DNA of 64,000 nt. It comes from a virus. A program made the translations under genes and the position numbers. Positions 1,629-36,476 of the stretch are shown here, in pieces. The notes under the pieces are model-generated. The model saw only the letters and a program-made list of their open reading frames with translations, was not told the origin of the DNA and did not search any database. The stretch covers positions 32,001-96,000 of IMG/VR virus record IMGVR_UViG_3300042691_021876; one strand, given 5' to 3'. How positions within the stretch are numbered: the first letter of the stretch is position 1; each line of letters opens with the position of its first letter.

Positions 1629-2555
1629 TTAAATCAAACTTTTTTTTTCACTACCATTTATATTATCTATTTCCGAAGATTCTTGAAATTCTTTAAGAAT
1701 CTCTTCTTGATTTACCGGAGCAATAGTTGGCGGTAATTTTTTAGTCTCTTTAACTGCTTCTTCCGGAGTTCCTGTTAAAACGTTTGCATCTTCTAAATGT
1801 GCAACAATTTCAGTTTCTTTTTCAGGTAAGGCATCAAGACCATTAATTTCTAAAGCATCTTCAATAAATGGAAGTTCTTCTTTATCTTCTAAACGATATT
1901 TAGAATTAGCAAGAGCCGTTGGTTCATCATCGGTATGATCTGCCGTTGGCAGTTTACCTTCTGCTTTTAAATCTTCAACGATTTGTGCAACTCTTTTTTG
2001 TTCAGCTTTTAAATCAGGTGCTTGCGTAGTTTCATGTAGTTGTTCATGTATGTTTACATCATCTTCAATCGCTGGACGAATGTAATCAACAAGAGACTTA
2101 ATAAAACCTAAAGCAACAAGTGGTAAGATTGCACCACTTATAATAGAAAGGATTCTTTTTTGGTAAAGAGGATCTTCATCTACAAGTCCAAATAATTCTA
2201 CCCAAGATTGGTAGTCTTGTAAATTTGTAAAGGCATAATATGTATTACCCATCATTTGCATACAAGTCAAAATAATGAATAAGCCCCAAACTAGAGACTT
2301 ATTCATTTTATCTAATACTATAAGAGATGCAAGAGATGCAGCTGCTCCAATTTCAAAAGCAATCGCTAATGAAATAGAAAGCCATTGCGGATTCGATAAA
2401 CTAAAGAAATCAATAACGTGAATAGTTGAAATAACACTCACAATTAGATACAAACTTACAAAAGTTGTAATTATGAATCCGTGTAGTAATTTATCTTTTT
2501 TCACTTTCAAGTTTAGTAATTTCAGCATCAATCGCTGTTTGGCGATTAACATCAA
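1629..2555 (-). CDS. multi-pass membrane protein with acidic C-terminal tail (true start probably GTG at 2504; possible -1 extension to 1543)
   Basis: about four hydrophobic segments, then an E/D-rich tail; ends just after an A9 run. Confidence 0.7.
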   Translation of the reverse strand: MMLIAKQRLMLKLLNLKVKKDKLLHGFIITTFVSLYLIVSVISTIHVIDFFSLSNPQWLSISLAIAFEIGAAASLASLIVLDKMNKSLVWGLFIILTCMQMMGNTYYAFTNLQDYQSWVELFGLVDEDPLYQKRILSIISGAILPLVALGFIKSLVDYIRPAIEDDVNIHEQLHETTQAPDLKAEQKRVAQIVEDLKAEGKLPTADHTDDEPTALANSKYRLEDKEELPFIEDALEINGLDALPEKETEIVAHLEDANVLTGTPEEAVKETKKLPPTIAPVNQEEILKEFQESSEIDNINGSEKKSLI

Positions 2556-11974: not shown

Positions 11975-14900
11975 TTAGGCTGCTGTAAAACCTCCAGAAG
12001 AGATTGTTCCAGTTTTAAGTATTGTCATACGGTTAATAAATTTCTGGATTCCACGAGCAGGCTCAATAGCAACATCGATTATACCGAAGTTTTGGTCGAT
12101 AATTGCTGGCGTATTATTCGTATCATCCATGATAACAGCGTAATTGTATACACCTCCAGCATTTCTTACAGTGTCAAGATAAGTCTCTACGATAGAACGA
12201 ATTTCTAAACGTGTTGAAGCATCATTAAACTCAAATAAGTATTGTTGTAAGATTTCTTCAATCGCTTCTTCAATCGTAATAAGTAAATCTCTAACGTGTA
12301 AGTTATTAAATGCGGATAGCGTGCGTTGGTAAGCTGTTTGGTTTGCGAATATCATCGGACCAACATTTTTAACTGTAACGATTGGGTTAATACCTTTTGG
12401 TTCAAGATTCTCTCTATCAGAAAGTAAGTAATCGTATTCCATTCTAACAAATTTCGGATTAGAGATTACACCACGGCGTGGACCAGCAACGATTGCAAAT
12501 GGTTCACCGTTAATGAATTTTCTTACGAAATTGTTTGATACGTCTGCAGCTGGCGGAACGCTGATCTCTTTGTTGTTCTCACGGATAATAACGTTAGGTG
12601 AGAATACACCAATGAATTTAGCTCCTTGACCTTCATCAGGTAACCCCCAGATATACGATGGTCCTAATGAAAGGTTACCTCCATCAGCAATATACGTAGT
12701 GTTAAGAACTGGTTTTGGATTTCCAGCAGCCGGGTCAGGCAAGTCTGTAAATCTTGGGTCAGTACTGTTTTGGAACTGAGCACATGATGGCGCATTAAGA
12801 AGAGCTAAACATTTTTGACGATTCATAGCTAATCTACTTAATACTTGTTTTGGACCCATGTTAGGCTCAAGACCACCGTTAAATGTATCAACGATATAAC
12901 GGAAAGCAATTACATCTTTATCTGCAAGTGTTACTGCAAGATTTGTATTCTCAAGAACTCCGTATATTTTTTCTAATTGAGTAGGAGTACCAGGTAAGTG
13001 GTAATCAGTCAATGTAAATCCTGAAAGCCTTGTAAATTGGTAACGATCACAGAATTTTTGGATTGGCGCAAACTTAGTAATTTTTGATGTACCTGATGTA
13101 ATATCAACAAGAGGAGTATCAAGAACTGTATATTCGAAGAATGGTAATCCAGTAGCTGGATCAAGTTTCTTAACCTTAGCAGTTACTCTAATAAGAATAG
13201 GATTAGCAACATTGTTGTTTACAACGTAATCACCAATTTCTAAGCTAGCAGCATTTGTTGGAGTTAATTTGAATTTTTTACCACCACCGTAAAGTCCTGG
13301 CGCTTCAATCGCAATTTGTTCACTAAGGTTTTTCGCAAGAGATGAATAGATTGCAATATCATTAGTTGCATTAGATCCATCAGTATAAACTATAGAACCA
13401 TCGTATGTAAGGTTAACATCAGCAAATGTGTTATCAGCTTTGTTTAATAATGTGTTTGCTGTGTATTGCTCAACTTTTGCTCCAGATAAACCATATGCAA
13501 TTTTAGTATAAGTATCTTTATCAGCGTTCCAAGAATTTGTTACATTCAAGTAATTGTATTGTGAAGAACCAGAACCATATTTAATACGGTCACCGTCAAT
13601 CACAAGGCTACCTGCAATGTTTTTAGCAAGTTTGTTACCTGGATAAGATTCGTAAACAGCAAGTGATGCAATAGAATTTCCTGTAGAAGGAGCAGAACCA
13701 TTGTATGTATTAGTTGGTACGTTTGTTGCTGTATTATTAACTTCAACATAAAATTGTTGACCGCCTGGTAATGTAACTTTAATAAGATCACCTGAAACAG
13801 TTGGTGCAGTATCAAAAGGATTTTCATTAGCCGTTGCAGTACCTACAATACGAACAGATTTGAAATCACCAGAAGTGTTATCAATATCATATGCAGCTAA
13901 TACACCAGTTTCATCAACGATATGCCAATCATCAGAACCTGTATTAATATCAATACCTTGAGTTACATTATAAAGAGTTACTTTATTTTTGTCATCTTTA
14001 GTTTCAGTTTGACCTAAACCTGCAATTTTTGAGTAAACAGTATTTACAGAAGCAATGTAACCAAAATCATTATTACCGTTAATATCAAGATCTGGTATTA
14101 AGTTTATAGCAACAGGCTCATGCGTATCAAACATTGTTACTGTAATATCTCCAGGTTGTAAGTAAGATGCAAATTCATCAAACGGGAATCCTGCAGTACA
14201 GTATTTACTTTGATAGAATGGAGCGCCATTAGTTAAACCTGTTGTTTTAAATGTAACAGTCATGACACCACCTAGTTGTGATACAGTGTCAACTTCAAAA
14301 TACTTAGCATATCCTGGAGCTTGGATTAATACGATATCATCTTGTGTAAGTGATGGGCCTGTAGAAATACCGGTTACTGTTACTGTTCCATTTGATGCAG
14401 GAGCACCTCCTAAAGATGCAGAAGGAAGGGTAAGTACATCATTTAAAGTGTAACCTTCACCACCTTGCGCAATAGTTACAACAGCAGCACCCTGGTTATT
14501 ATATGTTACATTAAATATTGCACTGTAACCAGTTCCTCCAGTTGCGGCAATATTTGTGTATGTAACTGGTAAGAAACCTGTAGTTGCAATTGGAATAAGA
14601 GTAATATCATTAGCTCCTGATACTCCACCAATTAAAGCACCGTCAATAGTTAATGTATCACCTGGGCGATATTGTGATCCAACAGAAGTTAATAGAGCTG
14701 GTAAAGCAATACCATAAACATTCAGTGAACTAACAGTAACAGTTAATGTAGCACCTGTACCATTAACCGATGTTGTTGTTGTGGCAACACCAGCATATGT
14801 AGCTCCTACAATAAGTGAAACATCAATAGTTACGTTTTGACCAGATAGACCTCCAAGAAGAGTGCCATCAATAGTAATAGTATCACCAATGAAGTAACCA

Positions 14901-16681
14901 TTACCACCCGCATTAACAGTTACACCGCCAATTGCTTGAACATTACCAGAACCGTCAGTAATTACATCCACAGTTAAACCAGTACCACCACCCGTTGTTG
15001 CAATAGCGGTAAATGTTGTAGACGGTGTATAAGCACCACCCGTTTGTCCTAATGTACCATCATCAAACTGAAAAGCAGGTCGCCCAATAGTTGGAGGAGT
15101 CCAAGTATTACCAATAGCAGTAATTGCTTGCCCTTTTGCCGTTGTTTGTGTTAGTGTAGAAATAGTTGTGATTGTATCACCAGTATTTGCTGGCTCTATT
15201 ACTTCAATAGTATTTGCTAGAGTCGGAACAGTAGCAGCAACAGTTTTCATAATGTAATTTGATTCTGGACCATCTGCTAAAAGAACACCTGAATTTTCAT
15301 AAGCAGCATCAACGTGAAGAGGAGTGCTTAATTGTAACTCAAGTGATGAACCAGTGTCAATGATATTGTCAATTTTAACAAAGTCATTAGGTAAAGAACT
15401 ATCGTTAATAGTATCAGTACCAAAAGTTTTAATTAATGAATTTGTTGTAAGAGCAGCTGATAAAGCATCATATTGTGCAACTGTAAAAGTTGTATCAGAC
15501 GGGTACGGCTTAGGAATAACTAATACGTTATTAAATAAACCTTTATCACCGCCGAAAGGATATGACTTAACATATACGATTGGTGATAATGAAACGTCAG
15601 TTACTTGAAGCGTTGGATCAAATCCAAAATTAACTGTATTTTTTAAACCTGTGAAAGTTAAAAGAGTTTTAATTGGTGTATTGTATGATAAGAAGTCAAT
15701 CACGTCATCAGTTGTGTTAATTAAGCTGTTTCCAACCATGTCAACTTTATATACTGAATTATCGTAATCATCAAAAGCTTCTTTATTCAAGTTACAGAAT
15801 ACTCCTGTTAATGCAACTGCTGAATTAAGGATAACATCAATAGATTGGTTAGAACCGTTGTTATCAATAAAGTCAGGTATGATAGTTCCTGTAAAAGATC
15901 CAGTCATTGTTACACCGTCAAGGCTTAAGAACTCAAAGAAGTTGCTTGATTTGATACCTCTTAAGTCAAAGTATTTAGAATACGTTGGATCTTGAGAAAG
16001 TAATTGTAAATTTGTCCAGTCTCCTTTCACAACATAAACGTCAACGAAATAATCTGAAAGATAATCGTTAGGTTGGATGTATGAAGGAACGTTTCCTCTT
16101 CCATAGTAATCATCAGCTGTTATATTGTATAACGATGCATTGTCTGATTTACGAACGATGATTGATTGTACTTCTTGTCCAAGATTAACGAAGTTAAACA
16201 AACGGCCACGGTTGGCAGGCTTGCTGTCTACTGTTGCTTGTAAGTATGCTTCATCTGGGAACCAGAAGCGTTCTTTGTTGTAAAAAGATGAAAGAAGCGC
16301 TCTTGTTAAGTTACCGTTTGATTCGTTTGCTGCAATAGCAAAAGAACGATAGTCAACAGCGTCTCCACCTTCGTTTACCGGGATGTTATTCAACGGTAGA
16401 AGATTTAATCCGAATACCGGTGCTGTCTGTAAACAAGTTTCGATTGCTCTGTGGAAAAAAGAACCTCTTTTCTCAAGGAAGGAGTCAACTTCACCAAATA
16501 CTTTACGAGATGTTGCTACATCACGTAAAAATACTGGAGCGTTAAACGGTCCTTTACGAGAGAAACCTACTACAAGACGGATAGTCTGTGTAGTCACAAC
16601 GATTCTTTCTGATGCGTCAAACTCTATTGTGTAGACACCAGATGCCTTAAATCTATTAAGATCAAGTGTGATTTTGGCCAT
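11975..16681 (-). CDS. contractile tail sheath protein (T4 gp18-like) with large insertions
   Basis: N-terminal SGVYTIEFD..VGFSRKGPFN and C-terminal AGPRRG..INPI..LHVRDLL..FEFND..TR..NNTPAIIDQN sheath motifs. Confidence 0.9.
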   Translation of the reverse strand: MAKITLDLNRFKASGVYTIEFDASERIVVTTQTIRLVVGFSRKGPFNAPVFLRDVATSRKVFGEVDSFLEKRGSFFHRAIETCLQTAPVFGLNLLPLNNIPVNEGGDAVDYRSFAIAANESNGNLTRALLSSFYNKERFWFPDEAYLQATVDSKPANRGRLFNFVNLGQEVQSIIVRKSDNASLYNITADDYYGRGNVPSYIQPNDYLSDYFVDVYVVKGDWTNLQLLSQDPTYSKYFDLRGIKSSNFFEFLSLDGVTMTGSFTGTIIPDFIDNNGSNQSIDVILNSAVALTGVFCNLNKEAFDDYDNSVYKVDMVGNSLINTTDDVIDFLSYNTPIKTLLTFTGLKNTVNFGFDPTLQVTDVSLSPIVYVKSYPFGGDKGLFNNVLVIPKPYPSDTTFTVAQYDALSAALTTNSLIKTFGTDTINDSSLPNDFVKIDNIIDTGSSLELQLSTPLHVDAAYENSGVLLADGPESNYIMKTVAATVPTLANTIEVIEPANTGDTITTISTLTQTTAKGQAITAIGNTWTPPTIGRPAFQFDDGTLGQTGGAYTPSTTFTAIATTGGGTGLTVDVITDGSGNVQAIGGVTVNAGGNGYFIGDTITIDGTLLGGLSGQNVTIDVSLIVGATYAGVATTTTSVNGTGATLTVTVSSLNVYGIALPALLTSVGSQYRPGDTLTIDGALIGGVSGANDITLIPIATTGFLPVTYTNIAATGGTGYSAIFNVTYNNQGAAVVTIAQGGEGYTLNDVLTLPSASLGGAPASNGTVTVTGISTGPSLTQDDIVLIQAPGYAKYFEVDTVSQLGGVMTVTFKTTGLTNGAPFYQSKYCTAGFPFDEFASYLQPGDITVTMFDTHEPVAINLIPDLDINGNNDFGYIASVNTVYSKIAGLGQTETKDDKNKVTLYNVTQGIDINTGSDDWHIVDETGVLAAYDIDNTSGDFKSVRIVGTATANENPFDTAPTVSGDLIKVTLPGGQQFYVEVNNTATNVPTNTYNGSAPSTGNSIASLAVYESYPGNKLAKNIAGSLVIDGDRIKYGSGSSQYNYLNVTNSWNADKDTYTKIAYGLSGAKVEQYTANTLLNKADNTFADVNLTYDGSIVYTDGSNATNDIAIYSSLAKNLSEQIAIEAPGLYGGGKKFKLTPTNAASLEIGDYVVNNNVANPILIRVTAKVKKLDPATGLPFFEYTVLDTPLVDITSGTSKITKFAPIQKFCDRYQFTRLSGFTLTDYHLPGTPTQLEKIYGVLENTNLAVTLADKDVIAFRYIVDTFNGGLEPNMGPKQVLSRLAMNRQKCLALLNAPSCAQFQNSTDPRFTDLPDPAAGNPKPVLNTTYIADGGNLSLGPSYIWGLPDEGQGAKFIGVFSPNVIIRENNKEISVPPAADVSNNFVRKFINGEPFAIVAGPRRGVISNPKFVRMEYDYLLSDRENLEPKGINPIVTVKNVGPMIFANQTAYQRTLSAFNNLHVRDLLITIEEAIEEILQQYLFEFNDASTRLEIRSIVETYLDTVRNAGGVYNYAVIMDDTNNTPAIIDQNFGIIDVAIEPARGIQKFINRMTILKTGTISSGGFTAA

Positions 16682-31096: not shown

Positions 31097-31834
31097 TTAA
31101 CTTCCACCGGGCTTTTTGAATTTCTTCTGAGCTTGTAAAGCGCGGTTTGCATCTTTATTTCGTCTTTCACTATTTTGTAAAAGTTCAATTCTGTTTTTTA
31201 GGTATAGCGCATAAATTCCACCTATTGGTAATCCCATCATTTCTTTAGGTACAAAGTAAGGAATCATTTCAAAATCTTCCACCTCAATTAAAACAGGATT
31301 CATTATTCTTTTAATTTCGTAATTTCTAACGGCAAAAGATAAACCTATTTTTGCATTCTTGTCAAAATTAAGTGACATAAAATACCAATTTGTGACTAAG
31401 TTATTTATTTGCATCATAGATACTAATCTATCCTCATCACTCATTTCATCTGCCTTCTTGTATGCGTCTCCAAAGATTCGGAAAGCGGTATCTATAAACT
31501 TAGCTTTAACACTCTCTGGAAGGAAATTAAGGTTCACTCCTTGAACTATGCGTTTACCTGTAGATTTTGAAACATATTCACCTATGATATAAACCATTGG
31601 ACGTTTATCGTAAAAATCCAACACGTCAGCACCTTCAGGCATATACTGGTAAGTGTAAACTCGCCCAGGCATAAAGAATTTTAATCCTTTTGCTTTAAAA
31701 CGTTCTGTTTGCTCAATAATCCAATAATTTTGAAACGGATTCTCGATATACTTGTCATTAAAGTATTCGTAAGTAGTTTTTCTTAATTCTGCTTTATTTG
31801 GATTCCTGTCATACCTATCAAAAAAATCTGTCAT
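31097..31834 (-). CDS. DNA end protector-like protein (T4 gp2-like)
   Basis: PGRVYTYQY.P...LDFYDKRP, GVNLNFLP; adjacent to the gp4-like gene. Confidence 0.6.
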   Translation of the reverse strand: MTDFFDRYDRNPNKAELRKTTYEYFNDKYIENPFQNYWIIEQTERFKAKGLKFFMPGRVYTYQYMPEGADVLDFYDKRPMVYIIGEYVSKSTGKRIVQGVNLNFLPESVKAKFIDTAFRIFGDAYKKADEMSDEDRLVSMMQINNLVTNWYFMSLNFDKNAKIGLSFAVRNYEIKRIMNPVLIEVEDFEMIPYFVPKEMMGLPIGGIYALYLKNRIELLQNSERRNKDANRALQAQKKFKKPGGS

Positions 31835-32358
31835 CGCGTTACTTTAAATAGGAAATCTTCTGTTACAATAATAAATTTATAACCTATAGATTCAGCATGT
31901 GCTTTAGCAGCTGAAAATTTTGCAGTATTAATGATAAATGTTTTAGCTGCATAGTTAAAGTTCTTTAACTTTTGCATTGTTTGGATTCCTTCAAACACTG
32001 GTTTCTTTAAAGATTCTTCAGGTTTAACTTCTACTAGATAATCGATTTCTTGACCGTCTTTAATACCTCTCATGTAAAAGTCAATGTAATAGTCATGTTC
32101 CTTTCCATCTATAGGACTTATGTACTTGATAGGAAATGGCTCTGATGACCACTTCAAGACATTTGTTGAATCATCACAATACCTACAAAACTTATATTCC
32201 CAGGACGAGCGATAGATGATCTTTGTGGGATCACCTATATACTTGTCTGGGTTATTAAGAGTGTAATAGCCTTGGCGGAATTTGCTTTTGGCCGTAGGCT
32301 TGTTTGATTTTATATCAGATGCCATAGAAATTTTCGTTGTTGATAGAAACTTGGTCAA
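31831..32358 (-). CDS. head completion nuclease (T4 gp4-like, TnsA-type endonuclease)
   Basis: NPDKYIGDPTKIIYRSSWE, WSSE, YYIDFY, VEVKP, AKFSAA..F.IVTE. Confidence 0.88.
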   Translation of the reverse strand: MTKFLSTTKISMASDIKSNKPTAKSKFRQGYYTLNNPDKYIGDPTKIIYRSSWEYKFCRYCDDSTNVLKWSSEPFPIKYISPIDGKEHDYYIDFYMRGIKDGQEIDYLVEVKPEESLKKPVFEGIQTMQKLKNFNYAAKTFIINTAKFSAAKAHAESIGYKFIIVTEDFLFKVTR

Positions 32359-32662: not shown

Positions 32663-33046
32663 TTATTTGTTGATTATAACAGATGCACCGTCATTGGTTT
32701 CGTCTTCGAGTGCTTTTACGTAAGAGGATAATTCAGCAATACATTTATCAAGTGATTCATGTGAAAGAGATGAATTATCTTTCACAAATAATTGTAATTC
32801 TTCAAGTGATGAAACGATTTCATTTATACGTTCGGTTAATCTATCGATAACAGCTCCAACCTTATCAGGAGTATTTTCTCCGGTTTTAGGGTTTGAGTTT
32901 ACATCCATTTCAGAATTATATACACCAGTTTCAAAAAGTTCTGTAGGTTCTACCAAGTTCTTCTTGATTTTAAGACGAGTGTCACCATGTATTACTTCAA
33001 CTTCTTCATCATCACCTTTACTTGTAAAGTCAAGAGCCTTAATCAT
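32663..33046 (-). CDS. hypothetical protein; probably the C-terminal part of a -1 frameshift fusion with 33289-34875
   Basis: its frame stays open upstream to the A9 run at 33299-33307. Confidence 0.6.
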   Translation of the reverse strand: MIKALDFTSKGDDEEVEVIHGDTRLKIKKNLVEPTELFETGVYNSEMDVNSNPKTGENTPDKVGAVIDRLTERINEIVSSLEELQLFVKDNSSLSHESLDKCIAELSSYVKALEDETNDGASVIINK

Positions 33047-33288
33047 AATCTCTGTGTCAGGAGCTAATCCTGAGTTAACAGCGTCTTGACGAATTTTGCC
33101 CTTTACATACTCTTTGGCCTCTCGAACTCCAACCGATCCGCCGTCTTGCTGAGTAATCAGCTCGAGGTCATTTCCCGGTTTAGCTTGAGAGGCCTTTTTA
33201 GTTACTTCTATTTCAGTAGGATTTACAATTTTTGTAGATCCGTCTTCAAATTCTATAGTAAGAGTGCGATCAGCTTGGTTAGTACCCG

Positions 33289-34875
33289 TTACTCTTGCTT
33301 TTTTTTTAAATGTTCAACTTCATCGTTTACATTTGCACCAACACCTTCAGAGATTGTTGTAAAATCTCTTAGTTCTTGTTGCACATTAGCATATGATTCT
33401 TTAAGTGTAGAGATTTCATCGTTAATTGCTTCATAAATGTTTGTCATTTCTTCAGACTCACGAACAGCAGGATTTGCTATTGCATCAATCTTGGCTTTAC
33501 GTTCTTCAAGATAGTTAATTGCCTCAAGGATTTCTGCTTTCTTAGCCTCAAGTTCTTTAATTTGTTTTTCGTCTACGTTAAGTAAGTCAGCGAAAGTGTT
33601 TCCTAAGTCATAGTTCATAAACTCTAATACTTCATTACGAGATTGTGTTCCGTTACAGTCAGCAACGAAAACATTCTCTGACATTAAAGTATTAATTTTG
33701 TTCATATGTATTTTGTCACCAGTGCGGAAGATATCTACACGACGGTGAGGATTTGAGTTTGAGAAGATTGATTTTACAAAATCAAGTTCGAAGATAGAAT
33801 CCCAGTTTTCAACAATTTTATAAACAGAAGCTAAAACTTCTCTTTCTTCAATTCTGAAGATTCCAGAGTTTAAGTAAATTTTTTCAAAATCAGAATTAGT
33901 AACTGCTTTACCGTTTACTTTTACAGATGGTGCACCGTTTTCTTCAATAATTTCTACTTTCTTATCACGAGAAAATATTTTAACTCCGCTTTCAGATACT
34001 TCAACATTTGATTGAATAAGATAGTTTGCTAACCATTCAAAGTTTTCAGGAAGTAATCCTTTATCAGTATCAGAAATAACATTTACAGATTCACCTTCTT
34101 TAACAAAGATTTTTCCAAATACTGCAAAATATTCTTTACCTTCATTAACATATACTGGAGAGTAAACATTTTTGAAGTATGCATCGCTGCTGTTTGCTTT
34201 AATTTGGAAACCGTTAGCAGATTCAGCAACTATATTGTATAATTGTTTGATTCCTGGGTCAAAAGACAACTTGTTAAGAGCTTCCATCAGTTTAGCTCTA
34301 TTAGTAGCAGTTCTTTGATTAAGGTAAGCATCGATTGGTTTTTCTAAACCAGCCATAAGATATCCAGAACTTGTAGCTTTTGCTTCAGCAACTGCTTTGT
34401 AAATTTTAATATCTTCTGCGTATTTAGAGGTATTTTCTTTAAGAATGTTTAATTGCTCCTTAACAACTGGAGACCATTCAAATTGTGATAGTGCTTCAAC
34501 AGCCATATCAGCCGCAATCCATTCAGGAACTTCCTGAAGACGGCGTAAGTTTTCTATAATGTAACGAACAGAAACGTGTTTAGACAAATCGTCTTCCATT
34601 ACTGCCGTGATTGCATTACGAACCCCAAGGTTATTCATTCCTGTTAAACGGTTCTCAACATTGATGAACTCCTGCACAACCGGTTCATCCACAGATGCAA
34701 TAGCTTCTATTAATGAATTAGCAATAGTTTCTTCAATAAAACTTCTTTGGCTATACGGAGAAGTTGCTGAAATGCTTCCGCTAAACTTGTTAATTGCTTC
34801 TGAACATGCTTCACGAACTTCTGATATTTGTGTAGCGCCAAGAAGAGCTTCTACTCTTTTCTTAAGATTTGACAT
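33289..34875 (-). CDS. late protein, possibly prohead core/scaffold-associated
   Basis: 528 aa, helical and coiled-coil, late motif at 34902-34910; ends at A AAA AAG. Confidence 0.55.
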   Translation of the reverse strand: MSNLKKRVEALLGATQISEVREACSEAINKFSGSISATSPYSQRSFIEETIANSLIEAIASVDEPVVQEFINVENRLTGMNNLGVRNAITAVMEDDLSKHVSVRYIIENLRRLQEVPEWIAADMAVEALSQFEWSPVVKEQLNILKENTSKYAEDIKIYKAVAEAKATSSGYLMAGLEKPIDAYLNQRTATNRAKLMEALNKLSFDPGIKQLYNIVAESANGFQIKANSSDAYFKNVYSPVYVNEGKEYFAVFGKIFVKEGESVNVISDTDKGLLPENFEWLANYLIQSNVEVSESGVKIFSRDKKVEIIEENGAPSVKVNGKAVTNSDFEKIYLNSGIFRIEEREVLASVYKIVENWDSIFELDFVKSIFSNSNPHRRVDIFRTGDKIHMNKINTLMSENVFVADCNGTQSRNEVLEFMNYDLGNTFADLLNVDEKQIKELEAKKAEILEAINYLEERKAKIDAIANPAVRESEEMTNIYEAINDEISTLKESYANVQQELRDFTTISEGVGANVNDEVEHLKKKQE

Positions 34876-34931
34876 TTTCTATTGATATTTTTAATCTATA
34901 CTATATATTCGCCATCATTAATACATTTTTA

Positions 34932-36476
34932 TCATTGTATTTCAAAGATGGCAGTTTGCGGATCAAGTGTATAGTCCCCGTCATTAACGAGAAGTGTACA
35001 GTTTTGATCCAGCACAATCCAATTATTTATCGCGTCATGCGATAGGATTTTTGTACCATTTGCTGTACCTGGTCCTTGTATAAAACTATCAAAGTTTACA
35101 CCAAGAGAAACAAGTTCAGCAACGGTTGGATTTAAGTTTGTTACTTTAGTTGGGTTAGGACCTAAAGGGTCGGTATCACCTGTAAATGTTGCAGCAGTTA
35201 AACAAATTTGAGATTGGACAGGATTCACCTGATTTTCAATTTTTAGTTCAATGTAATTAACAGGGGTTGGAATAAATCCAGAGCCGGGACTATGAATTGT
35301 AAATCCTATTACACGCCCACAACTTACATTTGCAGAAATTTGTGGCGCAATAAAAGGTGGTGCCCCTGGCGGTGGTTGAATAAGTGGAGAAACATTAATC
35401 ATTGCTTGATTTGAATAGCCATAACCTCCATCAAAAATGATTATTCTTTCAACTTCACCATTTGCATTTATGATAGCGCGAGTTTTAGCGCCTTTACCAC
35501 TGCTATCAGATACATAGGATCTAATAGGATCTTGTTTAACTAGAGTTTGCGTATTACTAAAAAATGGAATACTCCAATCAAAAGCACCATCATTTTCTGA
35601 TGAATCTGCAATCATTGTCCAATCATCTTGTCCTGTAAATCTATAATAGATATTAACTCTTAAAATTGCTCCTGAATTTGTCCAACGAATAGGAAGAGAA
35701 CTACCTGATAAGTATGTGCCATTTGCAGTAGGACTTGTGTATTCAAAAATAACTTGAGTTTCTTCATTTATGATTCCTATATCCATTCCTGGTCCACCTG
35801 CTGATGTAATACGATTCCAATTGTTTCTTTCAGTAGTTGGGTCAATTACTGGCATGTAAGTTTCAACTGCAAGCTGAAACTTGAGTTCAATTTTACTTTC
35901 AGTTTGATATGTAAATTCAAAAGTTTTTTCTAATCCGTAATCTTCGGGAAACCCTACTTGGCACGGAACTCTAAAACCTTTATAACTTACAGAATAAACT
36001 TGAGTCTTATAAAAGGTTTCAATGATTGACTGTTGAATCTTAAACGCATCAAGATTGGTATCAGCTTCTATAACAACATCAAATTGCATTGCTAATGGAA
36101 TTGAGTTTAAGAAAGCATTATATGTTTGTAATTGTCCGTCTATTTCTTTTGCATAACTACCACGAACAAAACGGTGGGTCATTGCTGATGTATTAATTGT
36201 ATTTGATGTTAAAGTAACAATACCTCTTGGTATTACATCATAGTTACCATCCGCATGTTTAGGGTGCACACAATCACTCCATTCTAAAAAGAAATCTTGT
36301 AAGAATCGCTCATCACCAGTCATGCTGTAAAAGAACGGAACGGTAACTCGGTCAAATGTGTTATCACCTAATACATTATCATATTGTACAACAGTGTTTA
36401 GGAGATTAACAAGACCAACTATTACAGCTCTTGAGTGTACGTTATCTGTATTATACTTGTGAAGAAATTGTCCCAT
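34932..36476 (-). CDS. tail terminator / sheath stabiliser (gp15-like) with C-terminal beta-rich domains
   Basis: N-terminal VPFFY..GDERFL..IPRG..F.LAVETY.P; C-terminal GGYGY / PGSGF repeats; late motif at 36481. Confidence 0.5.
   Translation of the reverse strand: MGQFLHKYNTDNVHSRAVIVGLVNLLNTVVQYDNVLGDNTFDRVTVPFFYSMTGDERFLQDFFLEWSDCVHPKHADGNYDVIPRGIVTLTSNTINTSAMTHRFVRGSYAKEIDGQLQTYNAFLNSIPLAMQFDVVIEADTNLDAFKIQQSIIETFYKTQVYSVSYKGFRVPCQVGFPEDYGLEKTFEFTYQTESKIELKFQLAVETYMPVIDPTTERNNWNRITSAGGPGMDIGIINEETQVIFEYTSPTANGTYLSGSSLPIRWTNSGAILRVNIYYRFTGQDDWTMIADSSENDGAFDWSIPFFSNTQTLVKQDPIRSYVSDSSGKGAKTRAIINANGEVERIIIFDGGYGYSNQAMINVSPLIQPPPGAPPFIAPQISANVSCGRVIGFTIHSPGSGFIPTPVNYIELKIENQVNPVQSQICLTAATFTGDTDPLGPNPTKVTNLNPTVAELVSLGVNFDSFIQGPGTANGTKILSHDAINNWIVLDQNCTLLVNDGDYTLDPQTAIFEIQ

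Follow-up and report, generated by a model that had tools for sequence, protein, structure and literature searches.

The window analyzed here, a stretch of 64,000 nucleotides (nt) comprising bases 32001-96000 of a 106.5-kb IMG/VR record (IMGVR_UViG_3300042691_021876; 106,534 bp; CheckV completeness estimate of 37%), comes from an uncultured T4-like giant phage and carries a minus-strand open reading frame (ORF) of 528 amino acids (aa) that closes just beyond a run of nine A's (A9). Some form of programmed recoding very probably operates at this run, wherein a -1 shift would join the 528-aa ORF to the next frame and yield a protein of 737 aa. Such a join had been proposed in a preliminary description of this DNA and now finds support in the conservation of the run, in selection, in the prompt stop that follows the run, and in uninterrupted outgroups. 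As to how the shift occurs, slippage of RNA polymerase on the A9 tract is favored, with a probability of roughly 0.55, over -1 ribosomal frameshifting of the dnaX type; the resulting protein would be identical either way. The elements involved are as follows:

33289..34875, minus strand: the 0-frame ORF, encoding the short isoform of 528 aa (72 homologs).
33299..33307, minus strand (T9 on the plus strand): the A9 run and slip site, which with G33298 gives the in-phase heptamer A_AAA_AAG (33298-33304).
33292..33313, minus strand: the overlap to which a shift is confined, bounded by the first sense codon after the -1 TGA and the final sense codon ahead of the 0-frame TAA.
32663..33298, minus strand: the -1-frame extension, 211 codons plus TAA, reachable solely via a shift and holding the ATG-initiated ORF 32663..33046.

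The 0-frame ORF closes with GAA CAT TTA AAA AAA AAG CAA GAG TAA, such that its protein ends in HLKKKQE* and the TAA (33289-33291) lies two codons after the A run. In the -1 frame, a TGA occupies 33314-33316 and the frame opens 6 nt before the run, from ACA (33311-33313); given this TGA 5' of the run and the 0-frame TAA just 3' of it, the shift is confined to 22 nt centered on the run. The -1 frame reads T F K K K A R V T G T N Q A D R T L T I E F E D G S T K I V N P T E I E V..., crosses the ATG-initiated ORF (127 aa) in frame, and meets its first stop at the TAA of 32663-32665. The conceptual fusion comprises 526 + 211 = 737 aa and reads ...HLKKK-ARVTGT..., with the predicted junction peptide ...HLKKKARVTGTNQADR. 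The position of the run, the end of the 528-aa ORF, the open -1 frame, and a product of about 737 aa had all been put forward in the preliminary description and were confirmed from the sequence.

A homolog search of 5.8 billion proteins returned 72 homologs at 29-95% identity, approximately 70 of which are 516-555 aa long and terminate in KKK plus zero to two residues, the residue preceding KKK being variable (L, S, E, G, or A). At the DNA level, 25 viral-contig loci and 34 metagenome-contig loci were compared, which came down to 41 distinct loci of this KKK clade once duplicates were removed; these 41 are drawn from independent samples and span 36-95% protein identity. All 41 carry xxA AAA AAA AAG, in which the run is A9, or A10 where GAA precedes it, and all 41 place a 0-frame stop zero to two codons after the run. 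The -1 frame opens 13-118 nt upstream of that stop (13-49 nt in most loci) and stays open for 152-215 codons past it in all loci whose sequence reaches far enough (two are cut off by the contig edge). The +1 frame is shut within 2-8 codons of the stop, or before the stop where the latter directly follows AAG. The A run and frame break first noted in the window are therefore shared, with the same run, the same frame offset, and an open -1 frame, by 41 distinct loci, and A9 plus G is the sole contiguous invariant block in an alignment of 31 DNA sequences.

The codon preceding the run is TTA in 28 loci, GAA in 6, CTA in 3, GGA in 2, and TCA in 2; it always ends in A, even though xxA codons account for only a minority of Leu, Ser, and Gly usage in the same genes (45%, 27%, and 40%, respectively), which argues for selection at synonymous sites to keep nine A's and the G. 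Likewise, the first Lys codon of the run is AAA in every locus (AAA makes up 73% of Lys codons in these genes), and the first -1 codon varies (GCA, GTA, GGT, GTG, GCT, or GGC) with its G invariant. By these measures, nine A's are maintained, which is more than the heptamer alone. Two sequences depart from the pattern: locus L047 has an A8 run, which places its extension in the +1 frame, and in P0080, a protein fragment, the two parts are joined in frame through ...ELSKKKVKII.... Both resemble the scatter expected from occasional homopolymer miscalls or from natural length variants around a true A9. The L047 locus (Ga0214923_10017200; protein P0023) also bears an N-terminal duplication of approximately 210 residues and thereby reaches 737 aa with no C-terminal fusion; P0023 was considered as a fused form and rejected on account of this duplication and the A8 run. 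Loci L055, L056, and L058, considered as cases of a +1 arrangement, were rejected as well, as they are uninterrupted forms of approximately 677 aa followed by an unrelated gene.

The DNA beyond the 0-frame stop behaves as coding sequence from the shift site onward. Translated -1 frames can be aligned starting at residue one (KKKA.VTG.NQAD..TI..EDGTT...) and contain invariant motifs such as E.GVYNSE.D...KT.EN.P. Over extension codons 4-66, a part that lacks a start, the ratio of nonsynonymous to synonymous substitution rates (dN/dS) is 0.13-0.31 in the -1 frame as compared with 0.8-3.8 in the 0 frame of the same DNA. The Met encoded at 33046 in the window is not conserved among relatives, and an exhaustive HMMER search recovered close relatives of the extension only as ORFs of 55-196 aa, for which gene callers had used many different internal starts; no conserved initiation site for the extension is evident from these scattered starts. 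On these comparisons, the trans-frame extension is under purifying selection and has no start of its own.

Outside the clade, the same protein is encoded without a break. Distant homologs are single ORFs of 752-1006 aa with 23-35% identity over the N-terminal 500 residues (among them P0072, P0090, P0093, P0099, P0103, P0105, P0109, P0112, P0120, P0122, and P0123, with which L055, L056, and L058 group), and they bear extension-like small beta modules at their C-termini. When the conceptual fusion was used as a BLAST query, single high-scoring segment pairs ran through residue 526 to P0120, P0105, P0072, P0123, P0093, and P0080. The sole relative in a phage GenBank collection, the 462-kb uncultured phage LR756500.1, is distant; its homolog, one ORF of 617 aa that here too is followed by a gp55-like gene, also aligns across the junction and carries a homologous C-terminal module. 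Since these distant, unbroken homologs align straight across the junction, the fused protein can be taken as the ancestral and functional form. Members of the KKK clade, by contrast, are all broken alike, and, judged from the alignments, this clade has turned an ancestral single ORF into a two-product gene. In LR756500.1 (locus L001, 972-2207), a 411-aa ORF resembling TnpB/IS605 OrfB lies between the baseplate/gp15-region gene and the 617-aa homolog.

With regard to mechanism and isoform ratio, we infer that unshifted expression gives the 528-aa product, the last ~20 residues of which would form an incomplete domain, and that in a fraction of expression events a -1 move inside the A9 run adds 211 residues for a total of 737 aa. 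The added residues would complete a beta-domain at the junction, after which would come a linker, another small beta-barrel, the conserved peptide motif, and a helical hairpin. In the favored scheme, RNA polymerase would slip on the T9 template/A9 transcript tract, which matches the length of the RNA:DNA hybrid, and a subpopulation of A10 mRNAs would carry the fusion as a single frame, after the model of Thermus thermophilus dnaX. In vivo, bacterial RNA polymerase is known to slip efficiently on stretches of nine A or T, its hybrid being 9-10 bp long, and Thermus dnaX uses such slippage productively (PMC5009743); these published data count in favor of transcriptional slippage here. So does the site itself: a homopolymeric A run of about 9 nt lies at the junction in the window (A9) and in all 41 relatives (A9 or A10), and nine A's rather than six are conserved across five different preceding codons. 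The lack of a conserved RNA structure and of a consistent Shine-Dalgarno-like element points in the same direction. RNAalifold, applied to 31 sequences from -30 to +90, predicted 0 conserved pairs, and the single-sequence fold of the window's own downstream 109 nt has a z-score of -0.19.

The composition of the genome lends further weight to slippage by RNA polymerase. Across the whole record, A/T homopolymers are strongly depleted: sense-strand runs of at least 8 number 3 as against 34 expected (antisense, 0 as against 9.3), and sense-strand runs of at least 9 number 2 as against 12.5, an approximately 6-fold depletion. In-phase A_AAA_AAA is likewise depleted (7 versus 39.7 expected), whereas in-phase A_AAA_AAG occurs near expectation (9 versus 12.1). 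Pairs and triplets of Lys are written with alternating AAG and AAA, KKK normally being AAA-AAG-AAA. Long runs have thus been purged while the heptamer occurs at about the expected rate; the genome evidently tolerates A_AAA_AAG itself but not long A-runs.

The record's only other A9 run is also a conserved -1 extension site, and it lies in a different codon phase, which again favors slippage during transcription. It is located at window positions 1640-1648 on the minus strand (within the region 1526-1648, at the 3' end of ORF 1629..2555), three codons before the stop of that ORF, in the 0-frame context GAA AAA AAA AGT TTG ATT TAA and with a -1-frame TGA immediately 5'. Its 34-codon -1 extension comprises the KKK of the run followed by FDLNSYFDLEYTPEPKAKKKVNPQVRPGVNA and conforms to the pattern FDLNSYFDL.YTP.PKAKKK.NPQVRPGVN.; it is preserved in four relatives (L062-L065) through many synonymous changes. 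The product of ORF 1629..2555 looks like a multi-pass membrane protein and has no PHROG match. Both runs of 9 in the record are hence recoding candidates. A further, tentative suggestion is that bare A9 runs serve as a general, genome-wide recoding device in this aquatic T4-like giant phage lineage, with all other long A-runs purged. Were this so, each genome would have two or more conserved sites at work, the genes being unrelated and the codon phases different, and the stuttering of RNA polymerase would be systematically harnessed to set the isoform ratios of late proteins, a ratio that might be tuned through nucleotide pools or through changes that the phage makes to the host RNA polymerase.

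The principal alternative, programmed -1 ribosomal frameshifting of the dnaX type, is possible though distinctly less probable. In such an event, tRNA-Lys on AAA-AAG would slip back one base and resume at GCA, giving the same 737-aa protein; the three additional A's might serve re-pairing in the E site or be incidental. An in-phase A_AAA_AAG in 41 of 41 loci, a G that is invariant after the run even though its -1 codon varies among Ala, Val, and Gly, and a 0-frame stop immediately downstream, as for E. coli gamma, are all consistent with this mechanism, as is a Shine-Dalgarno-like GGNGA approximately 16 nt upstream of the run in many, though not all, relatives. Neither the window nor its closest relatives have the GGNGA element, however, and where it occurs it overlaps Gly-Asp codons; no conserved downstream stem-loop or pseudoknot emerged from the folding analyses given above. 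Moreover, conservation that reaches nine A's over five preceding codons is unneeded by the heptamer, eight other in-phase A_AAA_AAG heptamers sit within ordinary genes at about the expected frequency, and the second A9 site has a different phase. A search of the window for tRNA genes returned none, so that no phage tRNA-Lys offers a clue. Slippage by RNA polymerase has its own difficulties. The evidence for it is all comparative; a G always follows the run, and the 0-frame phase is always AAA AAG, which is the most shift-prone bacterial -1 heptamer. The invariance of that G, despite a varying first -1 codon, is not required by a pure run-length model, and the depletion of A-runs could stem from pressure against replication slippage instead of transcription slippage. 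The argument from phase is not decisive, since the second site, too, has an in-phase heptamer (A_AAA_AAA).

Far less probable is phase variation at the DNA level, wherein the A-run would be a contingency tract and heritable changes in its length would toggle the extension between phage lineages. Rare A8 and fused variants do exist, and T4-like Campylobacter phages carry frame-breaking poly-A tracts, including one in a methyltransferase gene that was attributed to possible slippage (PMC2853527). At a contingency locus, however, in-frame and out-of-frame alleles would be expected in similar numbers, whereas the run length and frame offset are fixed in 41 of 43 cases (these being consensus assemblies, minor subpopulations are possible). 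Even more improbable is an assembly or sequencing error, the true sequence being A10 and the gene a plain 737-codon ORF, or else a pseudogenizing indel: homopolymers are error-prone, L047 was assembled with A8, and P0080 is fused in frame through KKK, but the same A9/A10-G and frame offset recur in 41 loci from independent samples down to 36% identity, the run is kept at synonymous positions, both frames are under purifying selection, and the immediate 0-frame stop is conserved. Similarly hard to credit is a pair of separate genes, with the downstream frame translated from its own start and the A-run merely encoding a Lys-rich C-terminus, for although the ATG at 33046 gives a 127-aa ORF in the window, this Met is not conserved, the starts called in relatives fall at many different positions, the 84 codons upstream of the ATG are conserved under purifying selection with no conserved start, the -1 frame is shut immediately 5' of the run, and unbroken homologs align across the junction.

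AlphaFold models were made separately for the 528-aa form (predicted local distance difference test score, pLDDT, of 80) and for the extension (pLDDT of 70). The former is modeled as a helical N-domain (residues 1-218), beta regions (232-325 and 361-407), a long helical hairpin (434-506), and a disordered tail (508-528), with the last 21 residues (EGVGANVNDEVEHLKKKQE) disordered. In the latter, three strands directly after KKK (within the first 28 residues) are followed by a disordered linker, a five-stranded beta domain, a disordered conserved motif, and a helical hairpin. The corresponding features of the window are listed below:

33191..33354, minus strand: a putative small beta domain straddling the shift site, its first strand or strands coming from the 0 frame (…VNDEVEHL) and a further three from the -1 frame (RVTGTN…TLTIEF…TKIV).
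32945..33109, minus strand: a second small, five-stranded beta domain (extension residues 67-121), as modeled; homologous modules occur in the uninterrupted homologs and in LR756500.1.
32867..32932, minus strand: the most conserved extension motif, E.GVYNSE.D...KT.EN.P, with invariant columns and pLDDT below 50.
32672..32863, minus strand: the predicted C-terminal helical hairpin of the extension, with pLDDT of about 90 and only generic helical-hairpin matches.

Taken with the alignments to unbroken homologs, the models fit a small beta-barrel at the junction, its first strand being encoded 5' of the shift and the others 3' of it. An SH3-like domain across the junction, as suggested in the preliminary description, is borne out in part: three strands follow KKK, unbroken homologs align through the region, and a repeat at the C-terminus of homolog P0120 reaches the Pfam gathering score for SH3-C_UBE2O; the window's own junction domain, however, had no fold-library match to SH3. 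The motif at 32867..32932 is probably a binding peptide, being highly conserved yet predicted to be disordered. The small beta module of the extension also recurs, in up to 20 tandem repeats, in metagenome proteins of 1000-2200 aa (P0089, P0117, and P0130) and appears to be a widespread, unnamed SH3/Tudor-like repeat.

Searches of several libraries did not assign a function to the protein. PHROGs and Pfam gave zero matches for either part, Foldseek against the PDB gave none at E<=0.001, ESM Atlas gave no usable match, and wide VIA-align searches with both models returned nothing beyond generic helical hairpins. BFVD yielded only uncharacterized phage proteins, from uncultured phages and from Tenacibaculum phage PTm1. 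Neither capsid nor tail-chaperone families showed similarity in PHROG, Pfam, Foldseek-PDB, or BFVD, and the VIA lists were filled by helical hairpins.

The neighbors in the genome, all on the minus strand, are of T4 type and include gp47/gp46-like SbcD/SbcC, a 514-aa gp15-like gene, the 528-aa gene itself, the gp55 late sigma factor, gp4-like and gp2-like genes, and the gp20 portal; clamp loader, terminase, sheath, UvsX, helicase, polymerase, and topoisomerase II genes lie further out. A AATATATA box at 34902-34909 (minus strand), approximately 27 nt 5' to the start codon (ATG) of the 528-aa ORF, fits the candidate late-type motif RATAWATA. From this neighborhood, the AATATATA box, and the two-isoform logic typical of structural proteins, we infer that the product is probably a late virion or assembly protein, to which the long form would add a binding module. 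The gp15-like protein (34932-36476, minus strand), at 514 aa, is unusually large for a tail protein (T4 gp15 is approximately 270 aa), and the sheath homolog (11975-16681, minus strand) is likewise unusually large, at 1568 aa, with its sheath domain confined to the last 300 residues. The gp4-like gene (31831-32358, minus strand) matches a 'head closure' PHROG (1.3e-45) but also the Pfam endonuclease family Tn7_TnsA-like_N (2.3e-17), and on these matches it looks unsettled whether head closure or nuclease is the right label for this family.

Recognition of the site restores a 737-aa protein, together with approximately 250 nt of seemingly 'empty' DNA, that standard gene callers have missed across an uncultured large-phage clade; because the recoding site goes unrecognized, annotation pipelines and catalogues split the gene into a truncated protein and an arbitrary fragment. 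The gene also illustrates the conversion of an ancestral single ORF into a two-isoform gene. With its A9G sequence lacking an RNA stimulator, two sites in each genome, and natural variants by the dozen, it is a clean system, provided by nature, in which to tell transcriptional from ribosomal slippage.

The recoding device itself is known (Thermus and E. coli dnaX, spa13/mxiE, tssM, and T7 10A/10B); a literature search found no paper on this gene family or on A9 recoding in T4-like aquatic phages. A close parallel is T. thermophilus dnaX (tau/gamma), which shares the bare A9 run, the lack of conserved RNA structure, the nearby stops in alternative frames, and isoforms with a common N-terminus (PMC5009743). 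In Thermus, however, the genomic frame encodes the long product and slippage the short one, the reverse of the arrangement here, and the gene specifies a clamp-loader subunit rather than an uncharacterized phage protein. The -1 frameshift of E. coli dnaX employs an identical in-phase heptamer, A_AAA_AAG, but relies on a Shine-Dalgarno-like element and a downstream stem-loop, neither of which is conserved here; the E. coli shift truncates the protein (gamma, with a near-immediate stop in the shifted frame), whereas here the stop lies in the 0 frame and the shift would add 211 aa, and nine A's are conserved in place of six. Shigella spa13/mxiE and Citrobacter/Yersinia tssM similarly use slippage on A or T runs to make a C-terminally extended long form from an interrupted gene (PMC5009743; PMC4256274), and that long form is functionally required; those are bacterial secretion-system genes, in contrast to the present phage gene with its deep-clade conservation and a second such site in the same genome. 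Finally, the T7/T3 capsid proteins 10A/10B and the lambda tail assembly chaperone gpG/gpGT resemble the arrangement proposed here in being phage systems in which a short major form is accompanied by a long minor form with an added C-terminal module, although they depend on G_GGA_AAG-type heptamers with defined stimulators rather than on a long homopolymer.

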